Positions 1-58,320 of a stretch of DNA of 64,000 nucleotides are shown piece after piece; within the stretch, counting starts at the first letter, position 1, and the number at the start of each line of letters is the position of its first letter. The stretch is from Haplodiscus bocki (taxonomy: Eukaryota). The notes beneath the pieces are model-generated. The model was not told the DNA's origin, searched no databases, and saw nothing but the letters and a program-made list of their open reading frames with translations. The stretch is from the NCBI GenBank assembly GCA_965655095.1, contig OZ296653.1, positions 83,266,001-83,330,000 of the forward strand, in the 5' to 3' direction. Position numbers and translations under genes: made by a program.

Positions 1-240
1 ATTCTTTTACTTTTACAACCATTTATAAGTCAACAAATATGATTAAGTGATTATATACTTTGAGAATTATTACATTTATATAAGATTAAATTCAGTCGAT
101 AGAAAACGATATTTATTTATTTTATCATCCTCACTTGAGGTTTTTATATGTTTAAGCAACTTAAATTCTTCTCGGTTGTTGAAGACGATAACTAGGAGTC
201 ATTGAATTATAATACGAAAAGATTGTTATCGTTAAATTGT

Positions 241-639
241 TTATAATGATGAACGAACTAGCTTAATCTCTTTTAACATTGCGCGAAGAAATATATATTC
301 GCGTATTTCTTTACTTACAGAAAATTCATAATAAAAATATCCTCCATTTTGGAATTTATAAAATTGAACACTTCGTTTATCACCACTTACGCATATACTT
401 AATTCCTCATCATAAACATTACAATTTACAGCAGTCTTAAATAAAAAAAACCTAGAACGACTTTCGTTGATATAGTGACGATGAGTTTTTTCAACATCTT
501 CCCAATGGACATCTCCAATAACATGTTTGTTTATTACATAATTATAATCCATATATGAATGTGTTTTTGATTTCATATGATTTGCTTTAGATTTTCGATT
601 AATCACAACGTCACATATCTTACAATAGTAATTCAGCAT
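241..639 (-). pseudogene. Zinc-finger (CxxC...HxxxxxH) viral accessory protein; continues out of frame toward the window start
   Basis: YCKICDVVINRKSKANHMKSKTH. The downstream residues resemble the paralog at 2059-2610. Confidence 0.6.
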
Positions 640-671
640 TTAATTGAGAAAAGTTTCTTTGAAATGTTTTT

Positions 672-986
672 TTATTCATAATCATTCAAAAATGGTTCTG
701 TCACCTTCTGTTGTACTAGTTTTTGAAATGAGAGCATGTATAATATATTTTCTCTTAAATTGGGAATATTCTCAATAATATTTTCAAAAATATTATCATG
801 AATTTTTAATATTATATCGTCTATTATAGACAAACTTACAAGAATCCTACTATGCGCAATTGTTTTATAAAAACTATTAATTATACATTTTCGTACTTGA
901 TTCAGTTCGCAAGTAATTCCTATACTTTTATAATCATAAAATATTGCAGCATTACAAAAAATTGAATTGTCTTTCACTGTTTCCAT
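672..986 (-). CDS. Hypothetical Maverick protein
   Basis: 104-aa ORF with a TAAATG start in the gene-dense viral region. Confidence 0.45.
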   Translation of the reverse strand: METVKDNSIFCNAAIFYDYKSIGITCELNQVRKCIINSFYKTIAHSRILVSLSIIDDIILKIHDNIFENIIENIPNLRENILYMLSFQKLVQQKVTEPFLNDYE

Positions 987-1052
987 TTAGATAAAAAAAA
1001 ATCCTGATAAATTTCCAGCGTTGTAGTTTCACAATTCAATTTATTTAAAGTT

Positions 1053-1560
1053 CTAGTCATAATTTGAATGAATTTTATATGTTCTTAATTTTTTAAACGA
1101 GTTTTTTCCATATTTAGAAATAAGATAATCAACTGATTTGAATAAATCGTCATCAATTATTTTTCGTTTATTAATAAATTTAAAACAGGGAGTTAGAAAA
1201 TAAATATTTTCCCAACCTATTGCAACACTGTATGGAGTTAAATTATTCCCCATATTTGAGATGTATTTATAAATTTCATCATTAGTTAGAAAAGAACATA
1301 TCATATCACCTCCAATATATACGTAACTATGTTTATCATTTTCTTCACCTATTTTAAGCAAAATAGTATTTCGATTAAAAACTTCTTTATCCTGAGCTCC
1401 CGAAAATTAAGTCATATCACATAGTTGACTTTCACCCAAAAATGTTTCCATAGGATTGACCTTGTGTATATTATTTTTCTGATCAGAAACATCTCTAAGT
1501 TTTTGTACTTTAACCCATCCTTTATTCTGAAAAGGTACACCATAGCATTCACAATTATTT
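1053..1560 (-). pseudogene. Hypothetical protein resembling a family seen in large DNA viruses
   Basis: GNTILL..YVYIGG..F.T.DEI.KYISNMGNNLTPYSVAIG.ENIYFL pattern. The 5' part is disrupted. Family resemblance is from memory only. Confidence 0.45.
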
Positions 1561-1824
1561 TCCGTTACATATATAATCGTCATTTATATTAAATAAAATT
1601 ACATGATCAAAATAATCTCCAAGATTTTTAATTCTACTACTTTTGATTTTTAATTCTACATCTAAATCTGTTATTAATTCTTTAAGAATAACAATCTGAA
1701 TCAAACAATCATATCCTATTTTTGATCGATAACGATAACGTAATCTCATATATCTATCTAACATTTCATTTATTTTAGAATGTATTTGTGGATCTTTTTT
1801 AATTACATCTATAAAATCATTCAT
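1555..1824 (-). CDS. Hypothetical Maverick protein
   Basis: 89-aa ORF with a TAAATG start, divergent from the gene at 1885. Confidence 0.45.
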   Translation of the reverse strand: MNDFIDVIKKDPQIHSKINEMLDRYMRLRYRYRSKIGYDCLIQIVILKELITDLDVELKIKSSRIKNLGDYFDHVILFNINDDYICNGK

Positions 1825-1884
1825 TTATCATATGGAGAAAATTAAGACCTTATAAAATCATTTCAAGTAATTTTATCTAAAGAA

Positions 1885-2058
1885 ATGAATAGTGAAAATT
1901 ATGAAGTTATTTACTGTGCTGATGATAATGAATATAGAGTTTATTGTGATATTTGTGATAAATTATGTATTGAAAGATTTTATAAAAATCATCTGAAATC
2001 ACTAACTCATACTAATAACAATCGTAAAAAAAAGATTTCAAAAATTTTAGTTGACTAA
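1885..2058 (+). CDS. Small zinc-finger protein (57 aa)
   Basis: MNSENYEVIYCADDNEYRVYCDICDKLCIERFYKNHLKSLTH...; not in the supplied ORF track. Preceded by the CATTTCAA motif. Confidence 0.6.
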   Translation: MNSENYEVIYCADDNEYRVYCDICDKLCIERFYKNHLKSLTHTNNNRKKKISKILVD

Positions 2059-2610
2059 ATGACGGAGTTACTCTGTAACGTATGCGATCATGAGATATTC
2101 GAAAATGAATCCGAACGTAACAAATATCTAGCTACTTTACGTAAGAAAAATGATAAAAGTTTTTATACAAAATATACTATTAATAAAGTTAATTTGGATG
2201 CATTCGATAAAATTTTAAACAATTCTATCATTACTCATAATAAAAAATATGATTTCTATTTTATTAAATGTGAATTCAAAATAGAAATTGATAATAATTT
2301 CACAGCAAATATAGAATATAATTATCATTATAATACGGACACTAAAAATATAAAGAGTTATTTATTATTTTATATTGATAGTTGTGAATCAGGAGGATAT
2401 AAATTTAGTAATATCAATTATGTGATTATCAACACAATTAGTTGTATGTGTAATATGACATACGAAAATTAGATTAATCAACCAATGCAGGCGATTGAAT
2501 TAGGATTAAACATGATTATTGTTAAAAATCCAGAATTGATTAATGCTCTTGACAGAAATAAAAATCATCCTCTAATCAGAAAATATTCTCACATACCATT
2601 TAATAATTAA
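2059..2610 (+). pseudogene. Cys-containing accessory protein, paralog of 241-639
   Basis: LCNVCD N-terminus. The frame continues past a premature TAG at 2470-2472 to ...HPLIRKYSHIPFNN*. Confidence 0.55.
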
Positions 2611-2859
2611 TGATAAAATTAAAAGATTTCTTTTTTATTAGATGGAATTTATAAAATAATTTTACAATTAAAATTATAATTATATTTATTATTCATATAT
2701 GAATATTTGTGATTATCCAAATCATTAGCAATTCAGTATAAGATAACATATTCATACAAATATAATAATAGTTATAATTCGTGTAAGAGTGATTATACAA
2801 TATCATTCATTTCACAAAATCTTAGAATTTCTTTGTATTCGTAAACTATGCTTAAATAA

Positions 2860-3093
2860 ATGAACATATCAAATGTTATGAATGATTATGATAAAATCAC
2901 ATCTAGTAATTATACAAATATTTTAAATGATTATGATAATATTACAGATACAAATATATGTACAAACAATGAAAATAATATTGATATAACTATACCATCA
3001 TTATTACTAACTTTACCATGTGGTCTATCATTTTTATGTTTGATGAGATTGATGGTATACACATTAATTAAACCTTTATTCAATAAAAAATGA
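2860..3093 (+). CDS. Small Asn-rich membrane protein
   Basis: NDYD repeats followed by hydrophobic IPSLLLTLPCGLSFLCLMRLMVYTLI. Confidence 0.5.
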   Translation: MNISNVMNDYDKITSSNYTNILNDYDNITDTNICTNNENNIDITIPSLLLTLPCGLSFLCLMRLMVYTLIKPLFNKK

Positions 3094-3820
3094 TGGATAA
3101 AACTTTATACCCAAATCATCCAGTTAGGTGTATTATAACCGGATCATCAGAATGCGGCAAATCAGTATTTCTAACAAATTTAATTTTAAATATTATTAAC
3201 GAACATGATAGAATATATATCTAATCACCTAGTCTTCATCAAGATTTATATCAAAGATTAATTAAATGTTTTAGTAATTATATACCTATTCACATAATCC
3301 CAAACATTTTAAATGAAGAAGATATTGATATAGTAATTGAAGAGATAGTTAATAAGAAAGACTTTGAAAAATCAGATACTGAGAGAGAGACATATGAATC
3401 AATTGAAGAATTGAAATTTCCTCAAGAATATGAAGATGGTGGTATCATTATACTATATGATCTCAATGAAAAAGAAATGAATGATCCTAGAGTACAAGCA
3501 ATGTTCAAACGATCAAGACATAATAACCTATCTATTTTTAGAATCTCCTAAGATTACTACGAACTACCAAAGGAAACAATTAGAGCTAATGGAAATATCT
3601 ATCACATATTTAAACCAAACAATTTCTTAGACCTTCGTTATATTTATCAAGACAAAATTTCTATGGATATATGAGTCTCAATGAATTCAAATTATTAACA
3701 TCTACTTGTTGGAATGAAAAATATCAACCACTTGCTATTGATATGACTAAAGATAAATACTGCGGCCGTTATAGATTAGGATTAAATTCAATATTTGTAC
3801 CAAATAGCAGTCCTTTTTGA
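3093..3820 (+). pseudogene. A32-like DNA packaging ATPase
   Basis: Walker A ITGSSECGKS, degenerate Walker B IIILYDL, RSRHNN and IRAN motifs. Internal stops and a frameshift. Confidence 0.88.
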
Positions 3821-3828
3821 TTATTTAA

Positions 3829-4717
3829 ATGAGTATTTATTCTAATGTAACTGAACAAGATCTTACCAATTTAAGAAAATTAGCAGAATAACAGAAAGAA
3901 CAACGAGCTCCTAAAATCAAAAATAGAATCTTAAAACAAACTCATGATATAAAACTCGCAGAATCCCTATCACCTATCACTAAAAAAGTAGATGAGACTA
4001 CTAAAAAACTAAGTGAAGTTATTAAAAAATCAATTTCTCAAAATGAAAATAAGCAAGAGATAGTCCCGATTGAAATTGAATCAGAAGATGAAAATATTCA
4101 AACTAATTTAAGAGCCCTTCCGAATAGTTCCATTTTTAGTGCCTTAAAGACAAAAACATTAGGGAGATTATTGTCTAGTTCCAATTCTCTAAAAATAAAA
4201 TCTGGTCTTTTTGGTGCAACAATACTCGGTGTTCCCATATATACTCTAGGAGAAGATAAACTGAGAATACGTGATAAAATTTATGATTTAACTCCCGAAA
4301 TTTACAAAGCACTATCTTATACAGGATATACTGGTAATACTATGAAAAATGAAAATGATATTTTAATGTTGAATAATATTATAAACGATTTAGGTTATAC
4401 AGGCGTTGGAGATAGAGATTCAAAACGAAAAACATTTTTAACAATAACACTTCCTAAATTAGTTAATGATATTCGAGAAAAAAACATTTGAAATTACAGA
4501 CGACTCTGATGATTTACAAGAAGGAGTGAAAATTATCTTCCCTTCAAACATAGTTGATATTTACACCAGACTTGAAAAATTACTAGGATTAAAATTATCA
4601 GGCCATACCGATACTCTCACAGAAGCTAGCAATTTAATAGATGAATTATATAGGAGAGGTGAAATACAAAACGAACAACAATATCGAAATGCTCCTAATA
4701 AATTTCAAAAACAATAA
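3829..4717 (+). pseudogene. Conserved Maverick coiled-coil/core-like protein
   Basis: Disrupted ORF ending in PSNIVDIYTRLEKLLGLKLSGHTDTLTEASNLIDELYRRGEI, a motif typical of Polinton proteins. Confidence 0.6.
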
Positions 4718-5503
4718 ATGGAACTACCGAGTAAATTAATAGAACAAATAGCTTATAATACACGAGCAAAAATTGAAGAGCATATGTTGATTGTTATGGA
4801 TAAGAGCACACACGAAGAGCATGTACTTCAACCACTTCAAACGAATAAAAAAAATTTAAAATAGCAGTCACTTTTCTAACTGGTTATAACGGTATTTTAA
4901 ATGTTACGAATTCAAATAAAATTTTATTTCCTAAAATCAGTTACTGATAAAGACGGTTATATAATAATAACTATTCCACCACGTGGTTACGAAATAGAAT
5001 CATTGAACAATGAAAAAAAGAGGATCATTGTTGATGAAGAACATTATACTGAAGCAAATTATCCATTTACAATCAAACCAAACTTTTCAACACTATGATC
5101 AATTATAGAAATATCCACTCAAGGACCTGTAAAAACATTCGCTCCCGATGATAGTATAGATCTTCTAGGATTTAATAGGACTACAAAAATTGAAGAATAT
5201 AACCTATCACCTAATCCTGGTGATATTTTATCGTTTGACAATATTTTTCTCGAATGTGATATTGCTCAAGGTATGATTTATCGAGGAAAACGAAGTTTAA
5301 TTATTCATAATTTTACTATGGATGTTGATCCTGGGTATAAATACATAGAAAAATTTCGTGGTGGAGAGCAATGATATATGATGGAAAGTAAGGATATTAT
5401 TTCAAGCATTTGTTTCAAGTTGAAAAATGAAAATGGAAACTTAGTATCATTTAATGGCCAATCGCTTACATTCAGATTATCAATTAAAGAAATTAATTCT
5501 TAG
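4718..5503 (+). pseudogene. Minor capsid protein (penton, single jelly roll)
   Basis: ITIPPRGYEIESLN, LLGF, NIFLECDIAQG, DVDPGYKYIE, FKLKNENGNLVSFNG motifs; located upstream of the MCP. Frameshifts present. Confidence 0.8.
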
Positions 5504-5505
5504 AA

Positions 5506-5661
5506 ATGCCTAGAACAATAAAAAAATCGAGATTACATTCTAATGAACATAAAACTAAAATTAAAAAAGAAGTGAATAATACTAAATCAAATTTACCTCA
5601 ACATCTTCAAACATTTAAACAGAAACTTCTATCAGGAAAGGGTTTTTTAGTATATAAATGA
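5506..5661 (+). CDS. Small basic putative core protein (51 aa)
   Basis: Lys-rich MPRTIKKSRL... ending LLSGKGFLVYK, which contains an adenain consensus site LxGx/G. Confidence 0.5.
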   Translation: MPRTIKKSRLHSNEHKTKIKKEVNNTKSNLPQHLQTFKQKLLSGKGFLVYK

Positions 5662-6948
5662 GCTTAGAAGAATTTCAATTAGTAGATAATGAACCATTTG
5701 ATAATAGCATCATAGAAAGAGATTTTACTAAAATTTATCACCAACTAGGAGCACAATTAAATCAATCAGATCAAAATATTGAATTCCTTTTTGGGCGAAA
5801 ACAATAATAATCATCAAATAGGCAATGGTTATCTTGAATTTAATATTACAGTACGGAAAAACGATACCACAAATTTTCATCATGAAGATCCTATTCGTTT
5901 AGTCAACAATGGTTATGCTTTCTGTTTTAAAGAAGCTCGTTTAAGCACCAGCATCGGTAGTGATATTGAACATAATAAATTTTGTGGTCAAGTATCTACT
6001 ATTATGAAAGTGATATCAAATAAAGATGATGATTTATTATCACAATTTGGTAATATTAATGAAAATGATATTCCAATTCTTGAGAGATTGGTTAATTTAC
6101 CACCTCAAATCAAATCTACACTTCATCAGAAGATGTTAATCGATAATCATACTGATCCCAACAAAGGTAAAATTAAAGGATGTTTATATTTAGAAGATAT
6201 TTTTGGATTTTGCAAAACTTTTAAGAAAGTAACTGAAAATTTAGTCTTTCACCTAACGTTTAAGACAAATGACTTACAGGATATTATATATACATCTGTG
6301 GATGATGATATGAATGTGACTATTAATAGTTTGTATCTGTTTATACCTAATCTAATTCCCAGTGTTGAAACTCAATTGATGTTTAATGAAGCCACTCAAA
6401 ATAATTATAAGATCTCTTTCGATGAATGGTACACAGAGAGACGAGTAATATCTGATATGATCTTTCAACTAGACATAGGATCAGCACAACAAGTTAATAG
6501 TCCTAAATATTCAATTTGTGCTCACCAAACAAAAGATAGGACAAACGCTTCTAATAAAAAAATTAATATTGCTATATTCGATAATCTCGATCTTAGAAAA
6601 TACCACGTTGAAATAGATAGTTTACGATACCCTAGAGAAAGTTTACTTATAAATTATGAACAAAATGATTATATTGAGCAATATTAAATTTTGAAACCAT
6701 TCTTTCACGAATATATAGAACCAATATTAAATCCTCTTATATCATATCCAGATATGAAAACAAAATACCCTATCGAAATAATAGATTTAAGACATCAACC
6801 TGATCATATAACACCTAAAAAAATTCAATTATTTCAAGAATATGGTGCTGATTCTCACAATGCTAAATTGTTTTTATTAATAGTCAGACGAAAAGAAATT
6901 GATATAATAAGTGATGGAAATAAACTCATTGAGGTTAAAGTTATATAA
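5658..6948 (+). pseudogene. Major capsid protein (double jelly roll)
   Basis: GYLEFNITV, LVNNGYAFCFKEARLS..G..IE, LEDIFGFCK, INSLYLFIP, SPKY, YP motifs. Frameshift near 5790 and a stop at 6685. Confidence 0.85.
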
Positions 6949-6950
6949 AT

Positions 6951-7354
6951 ATGACAGTTTTAAATTTTAAAGATTTTATGAAAAAAAATCAAAAAATGAT
7001 ACTATGATAGAATCTCAATTACAAAGAGTTTATAATTATTTTATATACCCCAGAGATTCAAAATTATATTCAGATAAAGGATTTGTAAATATTGATAATG
7101 GTAGTATGGGTGGATTTCATTGGACTTGTTTTATAGTAAAAGATAACAAACCATACTACTTTGATAGTTTCGGTGCTCAGCCAGCTAAATTTCTACTTAA
7201 ACAATTACCTAAACCGATAATATATCATAATTATAAAATACAAGATATAAATTCCAAATTATGTGGCTCATACTGCTTATACTTTTTCTATTTAATTGAA
7301 CGAATGAATTATTATGATGCTATTTTAAAAATGTATTTTCACGATTTTGAATAA
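6951..7354 (+). pseudogene. Adenain-like cysteine maturation protease
   Basis: Catalytic His (GFHW), Asp (YFDSFG), Gln (IQD) and Cys (LCGSYC). Frameshift in the A-run near 6985. Confidence 0.9.
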
Positions 7355-8839
7355 TGCCAATTAATGTATTTGGAAACTCTTCTCATAATAATAATAATAA
7401 CAAAATTGACACAAGTTTATTTGTACAAAAGCCATATTTGACAACTAATTATATAGAAGCTAATATAGAAGAGGATATTGACTTAAAAAATCAATTTAGA
7501 ATCAGAAATTTACCTGATCGTACTATTATTAGAGAACCAGCCTCAAAAAATTACGTTCATAATAAATTCAACGATCCTAGTATAATAAAAAAACTCTGCA
7601 CATATAGATCTGAATGATAGAAATATTACCAACGCTAGATTTATTCAAGTCAATCAATGGCATCAAATCGATTCTCATTTAACAGCTACGCTATATGTCG
7701 ATAATGCTATATCTGATGGAGTAAATGAATCATCATTATTAAGATTAGATCCTGATGAAAAATTGAAACAAGATTCTATAATTCTTAATTCTACCTTAAC
7801 ATCACCGAAAACGATATTAGAAGTACCTACTGAAAATTATGTTGATAATAAAGTTAATGATCCTAGTAAGGTAAAAAACACAGATCATGTTGACTTCAAC
7901 GATAAATATATTGATAACTTTAGTTGGATTAAAGTAAACCACATGCCTACAGTTGAAGAAAATCTAACACCAAAACTTTATGTCGATAATGCCATACACC
8001 AAATCATAGGATATACTAATGGATTGCATGAAATCATTAGAAATAGACGAGATTTATCATCAGTGTTTAATGATCAAGTCAATGAATTTGATAATAATAA
8101 ATTGACTAATTTAGATAGTGTCACTGTTAATAGAAATCCTAATTTAGATAATGAACTAGCAAACAAAAAATATATCGACGATGAATTAGATAAAAACACT
8201 GTTCTTAGATTTAATCAAACACTAGAAAACTATCTTAAAGTGTCGGTTGGAAATGACACTAATAATCATACTAAATATGATAAAAAACAAATTACAGATA
8301 CAACAATTATTAAATATCCAAACACAGGAGGATATCTATTATAGAATTCGGTTATAAAATGTAATGATAAAAATAATAATGGTAAAATACGAAACTTTAT
8401 AAAATCTACAAAAACAAACAGTCCAACGGGTTATTCCGGAGCAACGAGTTTACCTCCAATAGGTAATAGTTTCATGTATATAGAAAAGACTTCTAATAAT
8501 CATGGTAATAATTTTTTGTCAGCTTCGAACGAACAGATATTAATTATTCAAGTTAGTAATATAACATTCTACTACAACAGATTTTCAATTTTAACAAATG
8601 ATTCTTTAAAAGCAATGGGTCGTTCTAGAACTCAATTATTATTAGAAGATAATAGTTGGTCAACTAGATATACGATACCTAAAAATGATCGATATAATGA
8701 TTCATCAACTCAGTGGACGAAACCAAGTTTAAATTTTACTATAGAAAATTATGGTATTAGATTAATATATGATGAAATAGATAGAGCTCACGCTGATATG
8801 TGTTTCAGTAACATTACAATCACACACTCTATAGATTAA
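7354..8839 (+). pseudogene. Fibre/spike-like protein with repeated ..TK.YVD shaft motifs and a C-terminal MAM-like beta domain
   Basis: Repeats ASKNYVHN, TATLYVDN, TENYVDN, TPKLYVDN, ANKKYIDD; C-terminal SFMYIE...ADMCFSNITIT. Split over ORFs 7354-7617, 7763-8344 and 8474-8839. Confidence 0.6.
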
Positions 8840-9300
8840 ATGAATTATGAAAGTTATTTCAAAGATTTATTCGAATCTATTCCTGATTATAGAAAAATAG
8901 TCTCAATAATATTTTTAATTCAAAATGAGAAAGATTTTGTAAAAGAATTTGGAGTTTTGAAAAATGATATTCATCGTTCAGGTTTAGAATTCAAAAATAT
9001 TTTAATGGAAGAAAATGAAGAATACTTAGATTATATTAAAAACGAAGAATAATCCATAATTGAAAAGATTTTGAATAAGTAAATGGAACAATATTTCTCA
9101 ACTATGTTTGAAGACGTTAGACATGAACGATCGTTAATATTATTATTATCATTAACAGATCCAGATATCTTAAGACAAAGCAAATTCACACATGATGAAA
9201 TAGAGATTATAAAAAATTTAGCTTTAGAAAAATAACACAGACAAAGAATTTTAAAAGAGCATGTCGCGATTGAATTGTTAAAAACAATTTTCTGACAAAT
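8840..9300 (+). pseudogene. Two small related helical proteins (starts at 8840 and 9083)
   Basis: MNYESYFKDLFESIPDYRKIV and MEQYFSTMFEDVRHERSLI share an N-terminal pattern. Both have premature stops. Confidence 0.4.
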
Positions 9301-9302
9301 AA

Positions 9303-9920
9303 ATGAATAACTATCCGAATTTAAAAAATGAACCAGAGTTGTTAAAGATAAAAACAAGAGATGATGAAATTAAAAATCTAAAATATCAAACGGAAAAACA
9401 TGATTATGAAAAAATATTAATGAGTCTTAAAATTGATAATGAATATTATAGGAAAAAATCTAAAAGTTTAAATAAAAAGAAAGTATTATTAATTATCACC
9501 GAAAAATTAATCGGATCAAGATCAGCAGTAGGTACTTCTACAATTTCGTTAACAAATCCAAGCATTGGTATAGTGCTAACTAGTTCTACTGCTTTGTTGA
9601 CGTCTCTTGCTATTTTAATCACGAATGAATATATATCAAAATTAAAATTACGTTATACAAAACTAAGAGATTGGATAAATTTTATTACAATTTTATATGA
9701 GAAAACATTAAATCAATCTATGATACATAAAAAAAATTGATGAAAAAGAAGCTCAAGAATTAAAAAAAGACTTATAATCATTACCTTGATAAACGAAAAG
9801 AAATTATGATTTCAACTAAATTCAAAGTAGAAGATATTTTTGGTGAATTAATCAGTAAAGATTCTAATTCACCAGAACAAATAACTACACTTAATAATTT
9901 TCTAGCGAAAATAAGGTAAT
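9303..9920 (+). pseudogene. Coiled-coil protein with a hydrophobic hairpin (putative membrane protein)
   Basis: GTSTISLTNPSIGIVLTSSTALLTSLAILIT; frameshift near 9735. Confidence 0.5.
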
Positions 9921-10183
9921 TTTAAACAAAACTTAATTTCAACTTTTTTAAACCTAAAAAGAAAACAAATATTGATTATCAACCGAGTGCTCCTCCCTAT
10001 TACGAACAAATTTTCAATTATTAATTGACAAAGACATGGTGTGTTGGTGGAAGACATTAGAGTAATACTATTAATATAACTGAATATGAAAAGAGAAATC
10101 CTAAGACTAAAAGACTCGTTAAAATTATCAAAGGAAAGTGTAGTTTTTGCAATCGAAACAAATCACCAATTTTTACTAAATAA

Positions 10184-10612
10184 ATGACTAGAGGAGAAAA
10201 ATTTTTTAAAAATGCTAAATGTACACATGGGCATAGATCAGCTATGTCAAATTCAGCATGGTGTGACCTAAATAAAAATTGTACTGTTTTGAAATTACAC
10301 GATATGTGTCATAATCCTAAGTGTAAATGTCAAAAACAAATTACTTTCAGTCCAAACCAATTTCAATTGGATGGTGATGGTTTTAAAAATACTATGAAAA
10401 AAATTTTTACGGGGACACAATCAGCTTGGAATAAAGTTCTCAAACCAGCGTTAAATATGGCTAGTCCATATATCGGAATGGCTGTTAGTGCTAAGACTAA
10501 AAATCCAAAAATTGGACAATCAACGACTAATATATTGAAGAGTATTTCAGGAGGTAAAATCTTATCACTAACCGATATGTACGGACGTGGTTTAAGATTA
10601 AAAGTAATGTGA
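10184..10612 (+). CDS. Putative protease-processed virion protein with an amphipathic helix (protein VI-like)
   Basis: Intact 142-aa ORF with a Cys/His-rich N-terminus and adenain consensus sites LDGD/G, ISGG/K and MYGR/G. Confidence 0.5.
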   Translation: MTRGEKFFKNAKCTHGHRSAMSNSAWCDLNKNCTVLKLHDMCHNPKCKCQKQITFSPNQFQLDGDGFKNTMKKIFTGTQSAWNKVLKPALNMASPYIGMAVSAKTKNPKIGQSTTNILKSISGGKILSLTDMYGRGLRLKVM

Positions 10613-10641
10613 AATCATTTCAAAGATAAATTTCTAAGTAA

Positions 10642-11307
10642 ATGAGTAATTGTATTAAAGAAATATACGATTATGATTTAGTTAAACAATGTTTAAAAGG
10701 TGGAAATACCTCACTAGAGAGTAATTTTCATGAAAATAAATCAACTAAAGATGGGTTAAACTCTATCTCTAAAGGATGTATGAAAGATTATTACTTGAAT
10801 AATTCTATTAAATTAACTCAGAAACAGAAAAATTATAATTTAAAAAATCACGATCGAATAAAACCTTATAAAAACGAAAATACAGAAAAAACTAATGATT
10901 ATAATAAAAAACATATTAAACAAAGGAGACGGCCAGATATTAATTATCGTATAATTCTTATCACAAGAAGTAGAATTTATCAAGCTTTAAAAGGAATGGT
11001 TAAATCATCTTCCACAAAAGGTATTTTAGGAATAGATATTGATACTAATAAAAAGGGGATAGAATTTCAAATGACTCCAGAGATGAAATGGTGTAACATT
11101 GAGATTGATCACGTGAAACCTATTTGTATGTTTGATGTATCTTAAGATGAAGAAATAAAATAAGCATTCTCCTGGAAAAATACACAGCCCTGGCTAAAAC
11201 AAAATCATCAACTCAAAGGTAAAAAATTTAATTTCCTAGATTATCAACTGCAATTCATTAAGGCTTATCAATTTATCAAATTAAATGATCAAGAAGGACT
11301 TAATTGA
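10642..11307 (+). pseudogene. HNH-type endonuclease
   Basis: RSRIYQALKG, EIDHVKPICMFD and WKNTQP....N..KG after reading through a stop at 11143. Confidence 0.7.
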
Positions 11308-12136
11308 AACTTTTATTGATGAAAATTATAGTAAAACAGCAAAGAAAAATTATCCAATTAAAAAAATAGTTTACAACCACATTGATGAAATCTGGTCAAT
11401 TGATTTAGAAGACTTTTCAGATTATAAAACTTCATATAATAAAGGATTTAGATATATAATTTTATTTATCGATAATTTTTCTAAATATTTGTGGGCAATA
11501 CCATTGAAAAAAAGTGAAACAATAACAGATGAATTTTCAAATATTCTAACAAAATCAAAACGAAAGCCTCTAAAAATAGAGTCTGATAGAGGAGCCGAAT
11601 TTTATAATAGTATAGTTCAAAATTTTATAAACAATAAAAATATTCATCCCTATTCAAGATTCATAGACAAAGGTCCCTCAATTGCTGAAAGAGTCATCAG
11701 AAGTGTACGTAGTTTATTAAAAAAGCCCGTATTTGAAAAAGGAAATGCCAATTGGATTTCTGAACTTTCATCTGTTAATAAACAATATAATAATACTATC
11801 CACAGTTCAACGAAAAAGACCCCTACTCAAGCTAGTGAAAAATTAAATGAAAAATTAGTATATAACAATCTCAAAGACAACAGAGAAAATCAGAAACCAA
11901 AATTTAATCTAGGACAATTAGTTCGTACAGCTGATATCAAACGAGTCTTCAGTAAAGGTGATTCAACAAGTTAGTCATATATATTATAAACTATAACCGA
12001 AGTCATTCATGACACTATTCATAGCTATAGAATCGACTACTTACCCGAGAGATAAAACGAAAATCTATTACTACCAAAAAAACTAACCCTTGATGAAAAC
12101 AAAAAAGTTATGAAAGAACTAAATTTAATTCAATAA
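11285..12136 (+). pseudogene. Retroviral-type (rve) DDE integrase
   Basis: WSIDL (D), ESDRGAEF (D), IAERVIRS (E), YNNTIHSS..KTP, PKFNLGQLVR. Premature stop at 11972. Confidence 0.92.
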
Positions 12137-12707
12137 TGTAATAAATAATAAATGGAATTAACAGAAGATGAAATTATAGAAAAAATATGCCAAACACTGT
12201 GGGCATTGTAATCGAAATACATTACTACCATACGAATAAGAATTTACTTGCGTTTCATGCGGACAGAATGTAAACAAACGAAAACATAAACTATCTAAAA
12301 TTCAACGTAAAAAATAATTTTATTATTCGATTGAAATATGCAGAACAAAAAATATTTTGTATATGTATAGATGTATATAAAATTTACGAAGGTAATGATT
12401 ATGATGAAATATTTGAAATTTTATCCACATTAAAAAATAAAAAATTGAAACTAAACAATATCTTAATTGAAAAATATAAAGATATGTTAGAAAATCCTAA
12501 TTTCGAACAAGATTATTGGTCACGAACAGCAATGAGTATTAGATTAACGAAATGGTTGATTTATTACGATAGATCTTATTATGATGATATGAATTAATTT
12601 GATTTAATGGGAAGTATTTGCTTGTGCTATTGTACTTCAGTATAATTGTAAATAAGAAGAAATTTGAGATCTTGGATAAATCATTTCAAATAATTCTTAC
12701 TATATAA

Positions 12708-15700
12708 ATGGAGATGATAGCGAAAATAAAAAACTATCACGGAATAGAAAACGAAGAATTGAACGGAATATTAAAATGGATGATGAAATGAAATTATTAA
12801 TAAATAAAATTATAACAGAAAAGAAAAAAAGAAAAATATTAATAAAATTAAGGAGTTAGAAATTAAATTAGTTGAAATTATATATTCAAACAATCCTAAT
12901 ATATTACAATCTGCTTTGAAAGAGTTAAATAAAAGTCAAGTTGTTAATAAAATTTTACATGAGATTAAACAAGAAATATTAGTAGATTATGTTGGTGAAT
13001 TTGAACTGGTCGGTAATTTAAAAGTTGGCGATCAAATCAGACAAACTCATATTAGATTATAAAATATTTCTGATTATGAAGCATATGTTAATAGCATTGA
13101 TGAAGGTTACGACAGTCAAGATAGTATTTTTCAGGGTTATATTTATAAAGTCAATACTCCTCAATTTAATTTAGTTAATAGAAGTCAATATGGTAATGGT
13201 TGTGATTTTAAACATGAAATTATTGAATATCGAGGTAAAAAATGCTTTATACCAACTAAAGGTTCTTGCTTTGTTAAATGTATTAAATTCATAACAGGTG
13301 AAGATTAGAAACAACAATATCTAGACTTTATCCGAAATGGAAAAAAAGAACAAATATTATGACAAAAGCTAGAATTCAACCATTTTGTAGAGCTAATATT
13401 ATTAATTTAGGATATTATAACGGTGATAGAGTCTTTCCTAGATCTGTTACAAATAGAGATAGTGCTTTGTTTTTGTACAAAAATCACTTTTGTGTAATAT
13501 GGAAATCGGAAGGTGTTAGTTTTAATCAAGGTATTAAAGAATTAGAAGATTATTCAAAAATAGTTATTAATTATATAACTGAAGAAAATGTTAATTCTCA
13601 TTTTAAATATGAATTCATACAAAAGAAAATTGAATCTCATCTGATTAATTTTATTGTATAAGATCTTGAAACTCGTAACACTGATAGAGCTAGACCTTAT
13701 TGTATTTCATTTTATCGATTAAGTAAATTAGAAGTAGATATAATCGTGATTTGACACCATATGAAATAGATAAAAGTAAAAGAGACACTTTAGTATTTGA
13801 TGGAGGCAATTGTAACAGTAATGCTTTAGATTTTTTAATTAAAATTCAAAGGAGAAGGAAAAGTTAAAAATAAAATTGTTGAATATAACATTCAATTACA
13901 TGCCCATAATGGATCAGGTTTCGATACTTGGATTATATTAAATAATCTCCCTTGTGATAAACATATTGTTGATATTATTAAAAATGGAAAAGGAATAAAT
14001 TCTTTAAAAGTTTTCAATGGTTAAATATATAATGGTAAAAAACAAATTCCTGAATATCTAATTTTTAGATGTGGTATGACTCATTTAAATCATTCGTTGA
14101 AAAAATTAGGTAAGACTTTTAAATTACAAAAAGAATTATCAAAAACTGAAATGAATCACATTAAAGTAGATGGTAATAATTATAAAGACAAAAAAGACGA
14201 ATGGTTAGATCATGTTAGGAATGACGTATTATGTACTGCTTTTTCATAAGCGAGATATAGGAAAGCTATGAAAGAAATAAAAGGATTTTCTATGAAGGAT
14301 TGCTTGTCTTTACCAGGCTTAGGATAGAAATATTTTAACTCGTTAAGAACAGAAGAAGACGAGCCTATATACACTTATAATGATCAATACATGAGATGGT
14401 TTGTTCGTCAATCAATAAAAGGAGGGCGAGTATGTGCATTTAATCAATATTATAAATCAAAAATTTGTGATGATATCGAGAAAAATATATCAGAAGAATT
14501 AAATGTTGAAGGAAATATTTATAATAATATAGAAACTTATTTGAATTATAAGAACAAACATTATAAAGATTATGAAGAAGAATTTGAAAGTAAATTTAAC
14601 GATTATAGAGATGAGGATGTTGATGAAAAAGAAAAATGTATCAATGAAAAATTAAGTCAACTCCCTATACATCAATTAATAAAACAAATAAAATTAGATG
14701 AATTATTATGGGATTTCGATGCTGTGAGTTTATATCCTAGCGCCATGTGGGATGAAAACAGTATTTATCCTAAAATCGAAGCGGGATATGCTTTTACAAG
14801 AGATATGAATGACGAACTTGTTGAAAAATTTAAAAATCAAACTTTTAAACAAGGGTCTGCTATATTGAAAATAAAATATTATAAACCAAAAAAATTAATG
14901 GTTCAACATCTTCCTGTTAAAGAAAAAGGAAAGAAAATTGAAATTAACCGTATGAGAAACGGATATATTATAGACCATCTAATATCTGCTGATATTTAAG
15001 TAAGCGTCAAAATTGGTGGAAAAGTAATTGAGATATACGAAGGTGTTATTTATCGAGAAAATTTTAAAGTAAGTCCATTTAGAAAAGTTATTGATAAATT
15101 GTTTACTTCAGGACAGAAAAATAAGGATGAAAATAATGAAGTTATGCATTTATTAGAGAAATTGTTGATGAATAGTTTGTATGGAGAAAATATACGGAAA
15201 GACATCGAGGAGAAGTTCGCTTGTAAATCAGAAGCTTGGATGATGACCGAATATGATGAAAGAGTAAAGGATTATTGGAAAACATCAGGTAATAATTACA
15301 TTGTTAAAATGATAGATGACGCTGGATTGGAATATGAAGTTAAAAAATTGAATACCATGCCACTTCACTTAGGCGCTTTTGTTTTATCAAACAGAAAAAG
15401 AATTATGAATAATTTCATACACGCAACTAATGGATTTTATACAAATGATGTTTATTACGGAGATACCGATAGATTATATATTGGAAACAAACATTGGGAT
15501 AAATTGGACAAAGCTGGTTTGGTTGGTAAGAATTTACTACAAGGAAAGAAAGATTATAAGGAGGGAGGTATTTTTTAAGGATTGTTTCTAGCACCGAAAA
15601 TAGAATATTGCCTCACTATAAAAAAATACGGTGTTATAGACGCACATAAGACTTTCAAAGGATTTACCAGTGTGTCTGATAACTTAGACAGAAAAGAATA

Positions 15701-15947
15701 CTTTAAAATAATTGGAGGAGATAAATTAGTAGCAAAAGTGCTTCTTAGTTGGAAAAAGTCATTTAGTCTAGGAGTTGTAATTCCACATAAAATGAAAAAT
15801 TGTAATAAATGCACAAAAGATATTTTATGTGATGATTGTGATAAATCAATAAATCAGAGAAAAGAATTCTCAGCAAATCTAAATGAATTAAAACGAGAAC
15901 CTCCGAATGATTTTGGTCATATGCTTCGTAAGTATATAATCACTTAA
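12708..15947 (+). pseudogene. Protein-primed family B DNA polymerase
   Basis: ExoI DLET, ExoII HAHNGSGFD, motif A DFDAVSLYPSAM, motif B KLLMNSLYG, motif C YGDTD, FLAPK. Many lesions; start uncertain. Confidence 0.92.
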
Positions 15948-16118
15948 TCATATTTGTTGACTTATAAATGGTTGTAAAAGTAAAGGAATCCTTTGAAAAG
16001 ACTAGACATGTTAAAAATAACGACAAATCTAAAAAAATATATTCTACGAGGACGAAGAAATGCAAGATACTATGAAAAAATTCTATCTAATAAAAAGAAA
16101 TCTAATAATTTGACTTAA

Positions 16119-16745
16119 TTTTGTCAATTTTCTCGAAGATTATAATAGATACAGAGCTGAACTTTTCAGCTTAAACTAAACTTTTAATGGGCTATCCAAT
16201 GATATATCACTTATAATTGTAGCTTAAAATTTTATAATATCAATATATTTAAGGTATGTCGACATTTTGGGTTTTTGTCAATTTTCTCGAAGATTATAGT
16301 AGATATAAAGTTGATATTTTCAGGGTAAACTAAACTTTTAACGGGCTAACCAAAATATATATCGCACTTTCTTGTCGCTTAAAATTTCATAATCTTTACA
16401 TGTTTAAGGTATGTCGACATATACTGATTTTGTCAATTTTCTCGAAGATTATAATAGATACAGAGCTGAAACTTTCAGCGTAAACTAAACTTTTAACGGG
16501 CTATCCAATGATATATCATTCTCTGTTCTAGCTTAAAATTTTATTCTCCACATGTTTAAGCTAATTATCTACGGAAAAAAAGGTGTTAATTACATTTTTA
16601 GGGTTATCTCGAAGATGGTAAAAAATATGAAGTCGAAATTTTCAGGGTACACTAATTTCTTAATGACCTTTCGAATGACATATCACTCGTCAAGCTAGTT
16701 GAAAAGTTTGTTATCTCTACATGTTTAAGGTCTGTCGACATATTA
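16119..16745. repeat. Tandem array of four ~155-167-bp units
   Basis: TTGTCAATTTTCTCGAAGATTATA at ~16121, 16275 and 16430, with a diverged copy (CTCGAAGAT) at 16608. Confidence 0.9.
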
Positions 16746-19568
16746 CAAAATACACATGCACGAGACTGTGATACAATATGCATATTTTTTCTAGTTTCTC
16801 TCCTTGTATACTGCCACTTATAGCCCAGTGGTATTTGTAAAATTGACTAAGGTTAGGACTATGCTTGATTGGTAGTCACAGTGTTTGGGGTTCACTGTTA
16901 GCCAACGTCCCCCAGTCTTTGTCAACATCATGCACAGAAGCTATATGGAGGAACTGTCTATATCTTAATGCTTGAAAAAGTTGACTAGATCGATGGGGAA
17001 CGTTACCAGGAATGGTCCCTGTAAAATGCTTGAAAAAGAAGACATCAAACTTGGCCAGTGACGTTTTTGTAAAAGTTAAAAAAGATCTAGAATATGTAAT
17101 GATTTGAATAATCCTTTTCGTTTTGTAGGTCAGAAATGGATTAAAAATTGTACGTAATTTTATAATTTCATTTTTATTTCTATTAAACATAAATTTAAAA
17201 TTTCACAACGAGTAAAGCTTTAAAAAAATGGCGAGGCGTAGCAGAGAAAAAATATAAGCGAGAGGCGATAGAGAGCGAAGCGAGGGATTGAAAAGAGCCA
17301 GTGGATGTTGCCGGATAATATCAGTGGGACGAGCGATAGCAAGGAGCTACCGGTATTATCCGCAAAATCCTATATTATTATTCTCAAACTAGCTTAGGCA
17401 TCAAAGAGACATCTAATTTCAATCCGCAATTTCTAAAAAAAAATTTCTGCTTCATAATCGCCATGGCTGAGAATAATGAAAGCTTCTCAACAATGATACT
17501 GCACGAAGCGCGGGAGAAGAGGGTGCGAATGTTTGCCGGAAAAGCCCACCTGGCTTTGACGAAGAAGGGTTTCGACGAATTTGGCGAAACGTCGGATACA
17601 GGCAGGCAAGATATGGTAATCAACGGCCAACATTTCACAACGTTGACCCAACTCAACTGGACAAGAATACTCTTCAGCTTGCTGGGGAACCACATCGCCC
17701 CCACGAGACGTCTTGGTGCCGCTGAGAGCAAACGAGGATTCAGGACTACTGAATGATTCTCGATTTCAGTCAATCATTCTTAACGAGCAAAGTTAGTTCT
17801 GACTTATTAATATGACCACTCATTGAAATCTGGATGTATTAACTATGTTCGTTAGATTTGCAATGGATGCGAATGTTTGCGAGACGATTCGAAGAAGTTT
17901 TAATTTGGATATTTGTTTCAGCTACGAACACAGCTTTCCGTGTGTCAGTGTACGTATATAATTCAAGTGTACACATTCGAAAGGCCGTGTACATTACACT
18001 GCGAAAATAAAAGACGAACAAACAGAATGGGACATTCGAAAGAGACGGCGAGGGCATAACGATACACCACTGTGAAATAATGAAAATTGTCATGGATTAT
18101 AACAGATATCCAGATAGTATCCAGCATAACCAGCCCCAACAAGGTTCTTCAAGTTCAACTAAACAACAATCAAAAATTGCATGCAAGAGGGAAGCGGCTG
18201 AAGAAAACAACACCGATGAAGAAGAAGCGCCTCTGTCTCGCTTCAAATCATCCAAACGAGCAATCGGAAAGTCCGAGACAGCAATTGTCTCTCTCTTGGA
18301 CGTTAGTGAATGAACAATTCAATCAAATTTATTGTTACAAGTTCAACTATTTATAAGTCTGATTATATTGGAGTTGGTTAATGGTCTATACATATAATCT
18401 CCATTTCATTTCAAAAATACCGAATAAGAAATCATAAGGTAAAACTGTCTTTCTCTGGCGAAAAAAAATCGAATTAGCAAAAGTTAATTGTCGAAAAATT
18501 GAAAAAAGAGCCGTTGAATTGAAAAAGGACCGCGAAAAATTAATGAGAACAAAAGTAGTATTTTATGACATCGGTTGGTTTTGATCCTCTGAAACGCAAA
18601 GAGTTGAATTTCAGTTTAATTTCGGAGCTGAAATTCGAATAAAAGACTCAATGGATGCGAAAATGAAACAGGCAGAAAATTTCAGAAGTTCAAAACCCCT
18701 TCCAATTTTACTTCAGAAACGCGCCAACTCTAGCGCGCCAAACCATTTTGGTCCAGAATTCGCGACGTACATGAAATCCCAGTGGAATAAGCCACCAGGC
18801 TACAGGTACCATTGATGTGAATTGAAACTAACCGATTATATATGCAGCTCATTTGGTTAACAGCACCGTTTAATAGCTCAACTGTATCAAGTAGAATAGC
18901 GTATGAATGAAACTGAATGAACTGCAATCACAAAGAATATCTTTATGGCTTATGTAGCGGCTATATAAACTTTGAGCTTTGAGTATTCACAGAGTATTTG
19001 ATTTGTAATACTATATCAAGGAGAAATGAAATTAAACACTGTGACCGTGAAATGGTTCCACAGATATAGAATAGGAACATCGAATTGCTATAATACTGTA
19101 GGGAGCACGAAAGTGTTGGGTAACCCCCCCCCCACCTATACTACTCAGGCATATTCTCTTCTATAAAGCGTCGACTAAAAATATACAATAATGAGACGAT
19201 TTCTTCGAAAATTTGGCCTTTCCTAGTCCCGAACTAGAATCCATGGTTTGAAACTTTTTTAATACTCTCTAGACCACAGACCTTTTGGAGCTTTTAGCAG
19301 TTAACAGCCGCGAACGGCTGAAGTCAGCTCATTCCACAGGGCTTGAAACACTTGCTGTGTTCGATAGTTTCGATTTTTTCAAGAAAGTTCACCATACCCA
19401 AGGCAACTACAGCAATCGTTCGATTTTGCACCAGTCTTGTTTGTTGCATCAAATATTTTGGCGGATAGTCGATAGTGACGGTTATATGATTTTATTTCAG
19501 ACAGTAAGGCTTTCTGGTTAATTTCGCTCGGGCGGAAATAGCAGTTTAAATTTCCAGAAAAGAAAAAT

Positions 19569-22500
19569 TTATGTTGCAAATGTTTTTCTGTTGAAAACAG
19601 ATTCACATGAACTCAGCAGCTGTTGCTGTGTAAACAAAAACAAAATCATTTCAGTTTCATTAATCACACTCAAGTTTCGAACGTAACTGAATCCCTCTGC
19701 CGTTTTCAACCAGTGCGAGCCAATTGCACTTTTGCGCCCTTTAACTCCAGCTGTGCCGCGTTTTTTGGGCGTGCCCACTTTCAAAGTTTGTCGTTTAGCT
19801 TCCCAATCTAACGAATGCAGAGATTTTATTGTGTGAAAGATAAGCTTGCATAGTTGATCGTTCAGGCCAACATACTGCAAAGAAGATCCAATAGAAGGAT
19901 AAAACTTTCCACATTGTTCGAAATCATTTTGGTCGTACGAGCACCATTTGCTGAAGCTACCTCGAGACAGGTTGTATTCGAATACGTGATAATCAGAGTA
20001 CAGAACGGACAAGCAGTTTCTATCTTCCGAAACAACATTCTTGTTCGCTGAGGTAGAAAAACAAAGAGAAACAGGCAATGCCGTTCTTTTAGGAAGTTCG
20101 TGAATAAGTTTAAGGTCCTCTGAACTGAAAATTCCAATATTTCTGTCATCTTTGACCACGGCCATAACTGGTGATTTTTTGTGGAATAGCACTTGTAAAA
20201 TATTACTCTTTGACGATAGTTCAGAATACAGTTTTGTGCAAAACGGTGCTCCTCCCTCTACAAGATCATATCTTTGGAAAAGACCATCAGTAAAGACAAC
20301 GGAAAGCGCATCACAAAAAGAGCTGAAGTTGAGTGCAACAATTGGGGTACTGAAACGTCCTTTCAAAGGCACTTGAGTCAAACTGAAATCTTGGTTTACT
20401 TGGAAAAGTCGGAGAAAAAACTTTGAAGATTTCTGGGAAGAGTAACAGAGCCATTTGGTGTCCTTGGACATTGCAACATTACACAAACTGTGAAAATCGG
20501 GAAGTTTAACTCCAAAGACTTCTCTGAAAGATGCATCTCCCGAAGGAGGGCCAGCATTGTGGATATTCTCTTTTGGGTCATTTTCCATATCTACGTCAGC
20601 ACTTCCAGTGCCTTCTTCACGAGCAGGCGCTTCCTCAGAGGATTCAAGCCGACAAATGCAAAACTCGCCACTTTTTGGCACTGCAATTAGTTTTTCGTCC
20701 CCCAAAACTGAACAGTTGAAATGTTTCGGAAATGCTAGAACCTCAGCAGCAATTTCTCCAAAACCTCTCCACAATTTCATCATGGGCGACTTTTGCCCAA
20801 TCAAAATGTAGTTCGACTTTTCGTTTAGACTTTTAAGAAGAACAGCAGATGTTACTTCGGATGGGATCTTCTTGAGTGTTACACTTTGTACCCATTTATC
20901 TTCATTTTCGATTCTTGAGAAAGCGACTACGTAAGGATCGACACCGGAGGCGTAAACACGATTGGATGTTTCATCGTAAACTAGCGTTGTGATGGCAGCT
21001 AAGTGAGATTTAATAGTCTGCATGACTGTTCCAGAATTCAAATCCCACCACATCGTCCTGCCCAGATTGTCACCCGTCACACATGTGCTGCTATCTATGA
21101 GTACTATAGATCGAATAGACACATCTTCGTGTTTCTCCCCTGGGGAAATTGCACGTTTCCGACCAGACTTGTTTTTCACTTTTTGGTCTCTGAAAACAAG
21201 GTCAACACAACAATATCAGAAAATGGACTTTGAAACATATAAAACTATTTCAAGAGTGGTCAATCTGACCCCGCAACTATGCGTTCCATACTCCAACATT
21301 TGAAGCAGTTTGAACAAGTAAAATTCAAGTGATTCAAAATCGTTGCTTTCAAGCTATTACCCTGACGTGAAAATTTCAGTTATTTGCCCGGCATTCGCAA
21401 CATTTTTTTCTGGCAGAATTCAACACAGAGAAGCAGAACTTCGCAATACATTCTGACTTCTCTTTTGATATCAAAGATTACGCTGACAGATTAAAGGTCC
21501 AGAGAGATATTTGAACATTGATCGGATACTTGATTGACACGTTTAGAAATATTACACCAAATGCCTATCAAAATTTAATTCGAAAAAGTCGAAATGAGAC
21601 AACCTGTCACAGTGTATAATAGTCGAAAAGTTGATCATGGCTATTTAGATCCACCATTTCGCCCAATATTGTAAAGATTAAGAGAGCAAACAACTCAAAA
21701 ATGCACAAAACTAGGTGGCTCAAAAATATTACATGCAACAAAATTGCTCTATCTAAATGGCGAATAGTATATTATCAACAAGACGTCAAGTCGAAACAGC
21801 TTAAAAATTTCTAATCTCAGTTTTCAATCATCACGACCTGTACTCTTGTCGAAACATCGAAAAGAAATGCTTAATTTCGGTCACATAAGTGTAATCAGCT
21901 TTCATAATCTGAACCTAAAGTGGTCATTTTCACAAGAAGAAGAGATTCAGTGGAAGTGTCAATTTTGAAGAATGACAGGCGGTTTGTGCCGGCTTGAAAA
22001 AAGTCCGATGTCTCGTTTTCAATATTAACCATTTTTAGATCGAAATTTTAACATCTAAAGTTTTATGGGGACACCGAATACACTGCCCACACTGTCTCAT
22101 ATTCAAAGCGTTGTTATGTCAATCATTACCTTTTAGAAGGCTATGTTCATTTTTCAGATCAATATTCAAAATTTTTGCACTTTTCAGAACGCGAAAATAA
22201 ACAAGTACCTGCAAAGATGTTTCAAAAAGGGCCCTTTTTGACCGTTTATACTAGACTGATGACGCCACAAAATGCAAGTTTTGGATAAGATATGCATAAG
22301 CCAGTTTCCAATGCATATTCATCCATCCGTGCAGTCAGAACGTGTAAAAAAATCACATCGCTTGAATACCGCGTTTTACTTACTTTGGGACGGTCAAAAA
22401 CTCCACAGTGTAATTGCTCCTCTCAGAATTGTTTTCACTTTGCGACACCATGACAGAGACATCTTTCCATGAGATATGCACAATTACATTGACAGAACCA

Positions 22501-30200: not shown

Positions 30201-30447
30201 ACAGGGATTTTTAGCAAGAAAATTACATTTGAAGATGATCGCGGTCGGAAGAAGTCATAATTGGTCTCACAATAACACAAAGACATCCTAGCCAGGACCT
30301 TTTCTAACAGTATACTTACAATTTAAGTTCTATTTGCCATATGTTCTATAACAGAGATGAGACTGGGTAACTCTGTTGATCTAGGACCCTTGTGACTCAA
30401 CGAAACCTGACCAGATAAAATAACTGAAAAAAGTCAACCTTAAAGTT
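24210..30447. repeat. Tandem array of ~1.8-kb units (3 units, the third with an extra ~0.8-kb internal duplication)
   Basis: TGTAATTCGGGCGCTAGGTTCATGG at ~24395, 26224 and 28040; unit ends AAA(G/A)TCAACCTT at ~26040, 27840 and 30440; segment 28315-29075 is repeated at 29075-29830. Confidence 0.93.
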
Positions 30448-58109: not shown

Positions 58110-58320
58110 GCTGCTATGTTGCTGGTTGATTGCTAGCTGTTGCTGGGCTGCTGCAGGATGAATGCTAGTTGATGCCAAGCTGCTGCTGGTTGAAAGCTAG
58201 TTGCTGCTGTACTGCTGCTGGATAGATGCTAGTTGATGCTGTACCGCTGCTGGATAGAAACTAGTTGATGCTGTACTGATGCTGGATGGATGCTAGTTGC
58301 TGCTGAGCTGCTGCGGGATG
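58110..58320. repeat. ~30-bp minisatellite (GCTGCTGGATAGATGCTAGTTGATGCTGTA-like)
   Basis: About 7 degenerate units directly visible. Confidence 0.8.

Follow-up and report, generated by a model that had tools for sequence, protein, structure and literature searches.

The 64,000-nucleotide stretch of the Haplodiscus bocki assembly analysed here (the window) begins with an AT-rich block that is one decayed, integrated Maverick/Polinton, and the subject of this report is the hexamer TAAATG found at the starts of its genes, which resembles the late promoter of poxviruses. The GC content is 26.1% in 1-15929 against 38.8% in 17386-64000, in agreement with a first-pass annotation, made from the letters alone, that had described the element as far more AT-rich than the host DNA. 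The terminal inverted repeats are ~1.4 kb long and 84-89% identical (right repeat compared with the left flank). Among 12 end pairs examined, the 6-base target-site duplication is exact in the window copy and in four other elements and has one mismatch in one more, the others being without a resolved duplication. The element encodes the core Maverick set of A32-like ATPase (Pfam family PF04665), double-jelly-roll capsid protein (PF21738), rve integrase (PF00665) and protein-primed family B polymerase (PF03175, above cut-off), with most genes broken in the window copy. A second Maverick, of which the annotation had also spoken, did not turn up when the window was searched with 14 Maverick proteins. 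The features are as follows.

1..17379: Maverick/Polinton copy, in total ~18.6 kb, recognized by terminal inverted repeats and core genes; its left end lies ~1,250 bases outside the window
241..642, - strand: accessory gene with a Cys/His-patterned N-terminus; TAAATG start 639
672..989, - strand: accessory gene; TAAATG start 986
1053..1586, - strand: accessory gene, stop-broken; TAAATG start 1583
1555..1827, - strand: accessory gene; TAAATG start 1824, head-to-head with the gene at 1885
1885..2610, + strand: two accessory genes; start 1885 without the motif in the window copy, start 2059 TAAATG
2857..3093, + strand: small gene, C-terminal stretch hydrophobic; TAAATG start 2860
3090..3820, + strand: A32-like packaging ATPase, broken (Pox_A32, E-value 1.6e-10 in a sister copy); start without the motif in the window copy
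3826..4717, + strand: conserved gene of 280-300 amino acids (aa), broken, no assigned function; TAAATG start 3829
4715..5503, + strand: conserved gene of 260 aa, broken, a minor-capsid candidate by position only; TAAATG start 4718
5655..6948, + strand: double-jelly-roll major capsid protein, broken (PF21738, E-value 3.4e-9, and 3.7e-18 in a sister copy); TAAATG start 5658
6951..7354, + strand: cysteine-protease candidate with conserved His, Gln and Cys in the alignment; start TAAATATG
7354..8839, + strand: conserved gene of 390-490 aa, broken, no assigned function; start without the motif in the window copy
8837..11307, + strand: run of small and medium conserved genes; TAAATG starts 8840, 9083, 9303, 10184 and 10642, start near 10025 decayed here
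11282..12133, + strand: retroviral-like (rve) integrase, broken near its end (PF00665, E-value 2.4e-8); TAAATG start 11285
12149..12597, + strand: conserved gene of 170 aa, broken; TAAATG start 12152
12705..15947, + strand: family B DNA polymerase of the protein-primed type, several breaks (PF03175, E-value 2.4e-7); TAAATG start 12708
15965..15970, + strand: outward-facing TAAATG in the right inverted repeat, mirrored at 20-25 on the - strand
15930..17379: right terminal inverted repeat with internal repeats of ~155 bases; its partner is window 1-60 plus the left flank
17380..17385, + strand: 6-base target-site duplication; the second copy adjoins the left end of the element, outside

The minor-capsid candidate had no Pfam or PDB match and was similar only to unnamed viral clusters; the candidate at 6951..7354 likewise had no match in Pfam or PDB, and its pattern of His, Gln and Cys is what we take to be a cysteine-protease motif, which makes it the candidate for the adenain-type protease of Mavericks.

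All 17 TAAATG sites listed in the first-pass annotation are present at the positions and on the strands given there. The hexamer itself is common in AT-rich DNA of this kind: 44 sites lie in 1-16100, the 44 within 1-16000 compare with a Markov mean of 29 (44 was reached in 2 of 100 runs), and the whole window holds 65 against 77.8 expected from shuffles. Because the whole-window count shows no excess, we dropped raw abundance as a test and used instead a list of 23 starts that we set ourselves and anchored by homology to sister copies. Seventeen of these 23 starts are TAAATG and one more is TAAATATG, compared with 27 TAAATG among 586 other ATGs (Fisher p 1e-16), so that the signal is positional, at starts, and not a matter of abundance. 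The five remaining anchored starts are without the motif in the window copy, and most sisters have it there; the A32-like ATPase start, for example, carries it in 17 of 19 sisters. As for the annotation's claim that each of its 17 sites begins a gene, this holds for 16, which are homology-anchored starts, and a true TAAATG start that it had overlooked lies at 1583 (- strand). The seventeenth site, 15968, is inside the terminal repeat, and the 35-codon frame behind it differs in length and sequence among copies, so that its status as a gene is not established. The outward-facing motif itself was retained in all nine repeat ends in which the anchor word was found, the frame behind it ranging there from 12 to 67 codons. 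At eight sites (639, 986, 1824, 2860, 3829, 5658, 10642 and 15968) the TAA had been said not to be the stop codon of an abutting gene, and indeed the upstream frame is open for just 0-13 codons at these sites, with the caveat that at 5658 an upstream small gene in a different frame ends in an ATGA overlap.

To examine the motif beyond a single decayed copy we turned to the rest of the family, which is very abundant in the Haplodiscus bocki assembly (the integrase query returned 34,103 first-look candidates, 150 of them scored). We sampled 19 sister copies as two 10-kb stretches each from the top of the integrase match list, a choice that favours copies with open frames. The window copy is 20-30% diverged from these sisters and the terminal repeats are 94-99% alike in several sister copies, which together fit repeated invasion by a diverse virus population. 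Open reading frames (ORFs) of at least 60 aa were grouped by shared N-termini, blind to the motif, giving 346 ORFs in 31 groups. TAAATG stands at 246 of these 346 conserved starts, and neither TAG nor TGA precedes the ATG at any of them. Allowing TAAAT to lie up to 8 bases from the start, the motif is found at 291/346 grouped ORFs as opposed to 7/189 remaining ORFs, with a Markov null of 6.1%. Most members carry it in 24 of the 31 gene groups; the other seven comprise apparently antisense or internal frames and two polymerase groups in which TAAAT often lies further upstream. The motif was retained between copies with differing intergenic DNA.

The fine anatomy of these sites matches that of a poxvirus late promoter. 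The commonest variants keep TAAAT while the ATG shifts (TAAATATG at 24 starts and TAAATAATG at 19). TAAAT is followed by G in 246 cases, by A in 56 and by another base in 6 (G or A in 302/308). Because the invariant part is TAAAT rather than a stop codon followed by a start codon, it fits a transcription initiator. With each gene group counted as one vote, a T majority is seen at -11, -10 and -9 in 17, 17 and 18 of the 24 gene groups, respectively, against 37-39% at 1,930 non-start sites (p 4-8e-4), and no T enrichment was detected in any interval tested upstream of -13. The 17 sites of the window copy show the same T-run (2.6 against 1.6 T in four positions). At two sister loci, genes in head-to-head orientation share a single palindromic CATTTAAATG that serves both starts, and one wider pair was found. 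According to reviews, vaccinia late promoters have TAAAT(G/A) overlapping the start codon and, ten bases upstream, a conserved T (PMC5294985, PMC11980589); both elements are present here, TAAAT with G or A as its next base at the start codon and a T-rich stretch ~10 bases upstream. Four homologous starts in three short metagenome contigs, whose host is not known, read TAAATG three times and TAAATAATG once.

Host genes and other Mavericks served as controls. The host sample consisted of 14 starts, from histones H3 and H2B, ten tubulins and two Rpb7-type genes, and TAA preceded the ATG at none of them. The tubulin search had given ten more matches to its pattern, which were not tubulin starts and were dropped; these had no TAA either. 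A bias of host genes toward TAAATG, which the first-pass annotation had named as fatal to its proposal, is thus not seen among these starts, and its suggested comparison against base composition and host starts comes out in favour of a genuine enrichment. A search with the polymerase led to two further Maverick families. The second AT-rich family, which has only 26% capsid identity to the first and a different gene order, carries TAAATG at 26/26 shared starts in three elements, whereas a third family of 40% GC has it at two of 49 starts, both of one gene (three elements, two of them near-identical; the 49 include antisense frames). We conclude that the promoter signature splits Maverick families within one genome. 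Separately, a second-family element carries a RING-finger gene (L164:3377-4180; PF13920, E-value 9e-9).

A second feature of poxvirus type was found in a sister copy, where a 137-aa ORF immediately inward of the left repeat matches PF03293 (poxvirus Rpo18) above the curated cut-off. This Rpo18 homologue is present in at least 11 of the 19 sister copies, some stretches ending short of the element end, and all 150 scored genome matches out of 456 candidates were above cut-off. Across 18 open copies, the pairwise ratio of nonsynonymous to synonymous substitution rates (dN/dS) has a median of 0.31 and a maximum of 0.49 at a median dS of 0.6, values that indicate a gene under purifying selection. 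Searched against PDB, the Rpo18 profile had vaccinia Rpo18 as its sole match (E-value 3e-18); searched against 1.84 billion representative sequences, it gave 58 matches. The element proteins are ~137-147 aa long compared with 161 and share ~24-34% identity with the named poxvirus proteins. Host Rpb7-type proteins were below scoring by the profile, and in a 25-row tree, which included no entomopoxvirus sequence, the element proteins form a single clade with the host proteins outside it. Rpo18 has been described as an Rpb7-like stalk that in vaccinia shares a surface with the capping enzyme (PMC12917281, PMC10881513).

The surroundings of the Rpo18-like gene vary. It lies at both ends, within the inverted repeats or at their inner edge, in L184/L185, L186/L187, L192/L193, L030/L031 and L032/L033. 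In L188-L189 (G000:C3:12.676-12.696 Mb), a first-family element has at its left end a 5-kb tandem unit composed of an Rpo18-like gene and second-family-like genes. Five metagenomic Rpo18-like proteins (P0159, P0165, P0180, P0309 and P0312) form a branch of their own beside those of chordopoxviruses and fish poxviruses and possibly derive from undescribed pox-like viruses.

A poxvirus-late-type signal at nearly all starts and an Rpo18 relative in many copies together suggest that the element is likely a parasite of a poxvirus-type virus. We consider it probable that the family is a satellite virus, virophage-like in lifestyle, and that a co-infecting virus of poxvirus type provides the RNA polymerase that transcribes it in the cytoplasm. 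Of note, satellite status is meant here as a proposal of how the element may work and not as membership in the virophages proper (Lavidaviridae/Virophaviricetes); its capsid matches PF21738. In the suggested mechanism, the co-infecting virus would supply the polymerase and late factors. The core viral polymerase reads TAAA directly, according to a structure paper (PMC12917281). The core polymerase of the helper would recognize this sequence, start within the A-run and add a 5' poly(A) leader by slippage, and each gene would then be expressed, in the factory of the helper, as a post-replicative and nearly leaderless transcript. Particles and new integrations would arise during co-infection, with progeny integrating by means of the rve integrase. 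More speculatively, the element's Rpo18 could join the helper polymerase as a stalk subunit to supplement or redirect it, or could act as a decoy.

A number of observations weigh against this reading, and they are set out here together with the alternatives on which they bear. The first alternative is that the genes are expressed in the nucleus by host Pol II and that TAAATG is an overlapped poly(A) signal or stop codon of the preceding gene, or a translation context in AT-rich DNA. Among 295 sister sites, 120 motifs also spell AATAAA or ATTAAA and at 51 the TAA closes an in-frame upstream ORF (45-aa threshold), as this alternative would have it; as an explanation of the motif, stop-start coupling or poly(A)-signal overlap was rejected since each concerns a minority of sites and since both leave head-to-head starts that share one palindrome unexplained. 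The very high abundance of the family and the lack of a helper trace in the assembly also speak for nuclear expression, as does the splice-donor word GTRAGT, which is scarcer than expected on coding strands (15 against 31; antisense 35 against 50), a scarcity that could reflect nuclear transcription and points weakly that way. On the other hand, TAG and TGA equivalents of the motif do not occur, the sampled host starts are without it, first genes and head-to-head genes that have no upstream neighbour carry it, the T-run lies at a fixed distance, and a lone poxvirus Rpo18 would have no role. Moreover, the coding strands of the element are filled with AATAAA (3.7 per kb with no avoidance, compared with 0.1 per kb in host ORFs), which would fit cytoplasmic transcription; the coding strands of the third family, too, show no avoidance of this word (observed/expected 1.3), and this again counts against our reading. 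Taken together, we regard nuclear expression by Pol II as highly improbable. The early-termination word TTTTTNT showed no depletion specific to coding strands (0.81 sense, 0.70 antisense), and thus gives no hint of a class of early genes. An inward AAAATTGA-like word in the 155-base units of the terminal repeats, at window 16131, 16285 and 16440 (- strand) and in the left flank, resembles early promoters of nucleocytoplasmic large DNA viruses (NCLDVs); because it is part of a repeat unit, we did not count it as an early promoter.

The second alternative retains a cytoplasmic helper that is not a poxvirus proper: some other large DNA virus, or an element resembling a linear plasmid that brings its own polymerase and initiates at TAAA. 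In yeast, linear elements with their own polymerase are described as using TAAAN initiators and 5' A-leaders (PMC6211774). In addition, language-model comparison places the Rpo18-like protein closer to unnamed NCLDV clusters (0.91-0.92) than to the poxvirus cluster (0.88), and a weak fold match fails to separate vaccinia (Z score 6.4) from African swine fever virus (6.2), with a root-mean-square deviation of 6.5 over 126 aligned residues and a model confidence (pLDDT) of 55. The Rpo18 clade is long-branched, and its placement among chordopoxvirus, fish-pox and unnamed sequences is not settled by the tree. By contrast, among nine profile matches looked up, the named ones are from sea otter poxvirus, carp edema virus and salmon gill poxvirus, apart from one long bacterial protein that also scored; T at -10 and TAAAT(G/A) point to the vaccinia late class in particular; and no polymerase of the kind that this alternative requires was found in the assembly, within the limited reach of the search. 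A helper other than a poxvirus-type virus therefore appears unlikely to us.

As for the proposed poxvirus-type helper, the pox or NCLDV RNA polymerase genes for which the first-pass annotation had recommended a search were not found in the assembly, nor were VLTF3, D13, an extra Rpb1 or Rpb2, or a viral cap methyltransferase, the queries being blank or giving one to three host-like loci; the reach of this search was limited, given that two pox-family controls matched nowhere and that Rpb2 gave two loci where three host genes were expected. Queries of viral contigs with the Rpo18 alignment, the capsid, two unnamed Rpo18-like proteins and the family-2 polymerase returned no relative of the element. 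Thus, the annotation's idea of transcription by a cytoplasmic helper polymerase gains from the motif, the T-run, the Rpo18 homologue and the controls with host genes and the 40%-GC family, but no helper polymerase accompanies these in the assembly, and so helper dependence stays inferred. Similarly, the window copy, 8 of 19 sisters and the sampled stretches of families 2 and 3 gave no Rpo18 match, which implies that the gene is dispensable or supplied in trans.

These same absences, namely of a helper from the assembly and of Rpo18 from the window copy and other copies, together with the five of 23 window starts that are without the motif, favour a third alternative in which promoters and Rpo18 were inherited from ancestors that lived as satellites, and the family today spreads helper-free. 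Against such a relic stand the conservation of the motif despite differing intergenic DNA and in a family as distant in its capsid as the second, the purifying selection acting on Rpo18 at substantial synonymous divergence, and the several copies with nearly identical terminal repeats, which make their motif-bearing insertions recent. The TAAAT initiator was also retained at two family B polymerase types without BLAST similarity to each other. We therefore judge a helper-free relic to be very unlikely, and retain the poxvirus-type helper as the preferred explanation. Copies with the same gene order carry one or the other of these two polymerase types (window 12708-15947 versus L029:3986-7801). 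A further element with a 6-base target duplication (L155-L157; G000:C4, about 88.366-88.385 Mb) has a polymerase gene and neighbouring ORFs inside each of its very long inverted repeats, and neither capsid nor integrase was seen among its ORFs of at least 95 aa.

Going one step further, these elements may be endogenous "poxvirus virophages" in an animal germ line, that is, Mavericks with poxvirus late promoters whose captured Rpo18 redirects or sabotages the polymerase of an undescribed host poxvirus, and which perhaps act as an inducible antiviral defence like mavirus in protists. We put this extended proposal forward tentatively, as something that falls somewhat short of an even chance.

Outside the element, the window contains a host WDR3/Utp12-like gene with long exons (30873-33799, - strand) and a second WD40-type ORF (19569-21053, - strand). 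Three to four diverged tandem copies of a ~1.8-kb unit occupy 24300-30450, and tandem arrays of 32-base and 120-133-base units are found at 58078-58333 and 54326-55009, respectively.

With the promoter signature, the mode of expression of animal Mavericks and their possible need for a helper become testable from sequence alone, in any animal assembly. The signature also predicts a poxvirus-type virus in a host in which none has been seen, and the element may exemplify a satellite that bears an RNA polymerase subunit of its helper. We know of no capsid or integrase genes in the yeast cytoplasmic linear elements pGKL1/2. These share the TAAAN initiator with the element described here; 5' A-leaders are described for them and would be expected in our element, and pGKL1/2 are described as encoding their own polymerase and capping enzyme, unlike the element here (PMC6211774).

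Helper-matched promoters in virophages and polinton-like parasites of entomopoxviruses are already known; outside subscription journals and supplementary files, our literature search found no report of poxvirus late promoters or Rpo18 in Mavericks. The element resembles the Mavericks/Polintons described as "adintoviruses" (PMC8502044) in its inverted repeats, 6-base duplication, protein-primed family B polymerase, rve integrase, A32-like ATPase and double-jelly-roll capsid, and differs from them, as far as that account goes, in that nearly all its genes have the anatomy of a pox-type late promoter at their starts and that many copies encode a homologue of poxvirus Rpo18; the main text of the adintovirus paper does not use the word "promoter". 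The polinton-like viruses associated with entomopoxviruses (PMC11296320) are likewise small double-stranded DNA elements proposed to be poxvirus parasites, and one lineage branches with Maverick-type capsids. They come from occlusion bodies, with no rve integrase reported in that account, whereas the elements here are integrated, of high copy number and without a helper in sight; the main text of that paper, supplements aside, contains none of "promoter", "TAAAT" or "transcription". Mavirus and the endogenous mavirus-like elements (EMALEs) of Cafeteria are integrated elements, too, with a GC content and a promoter motif that vary from clade to clade, and the division of our Maverick families by TAAATG recalls this clade split; reactivation is described there only for EMALEs that carry the late promoter of the helper (10.1101/2025.10.09.676808). 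Those elements have a protist host, a virophage-class capsid and a Mimiviridae helper, in contrast to the animal host, Maverick gene set and pox-type motif found here. With respect to vaccinia itself, the likeness lies in TAAAT(G/A), the T near -10 and the similarity to Rpo18/D7R, and the difference in the ORFs that we scanned, among which no catalytic RNA polymerase subunit was found, and in the shorter Rpo18 of the element.

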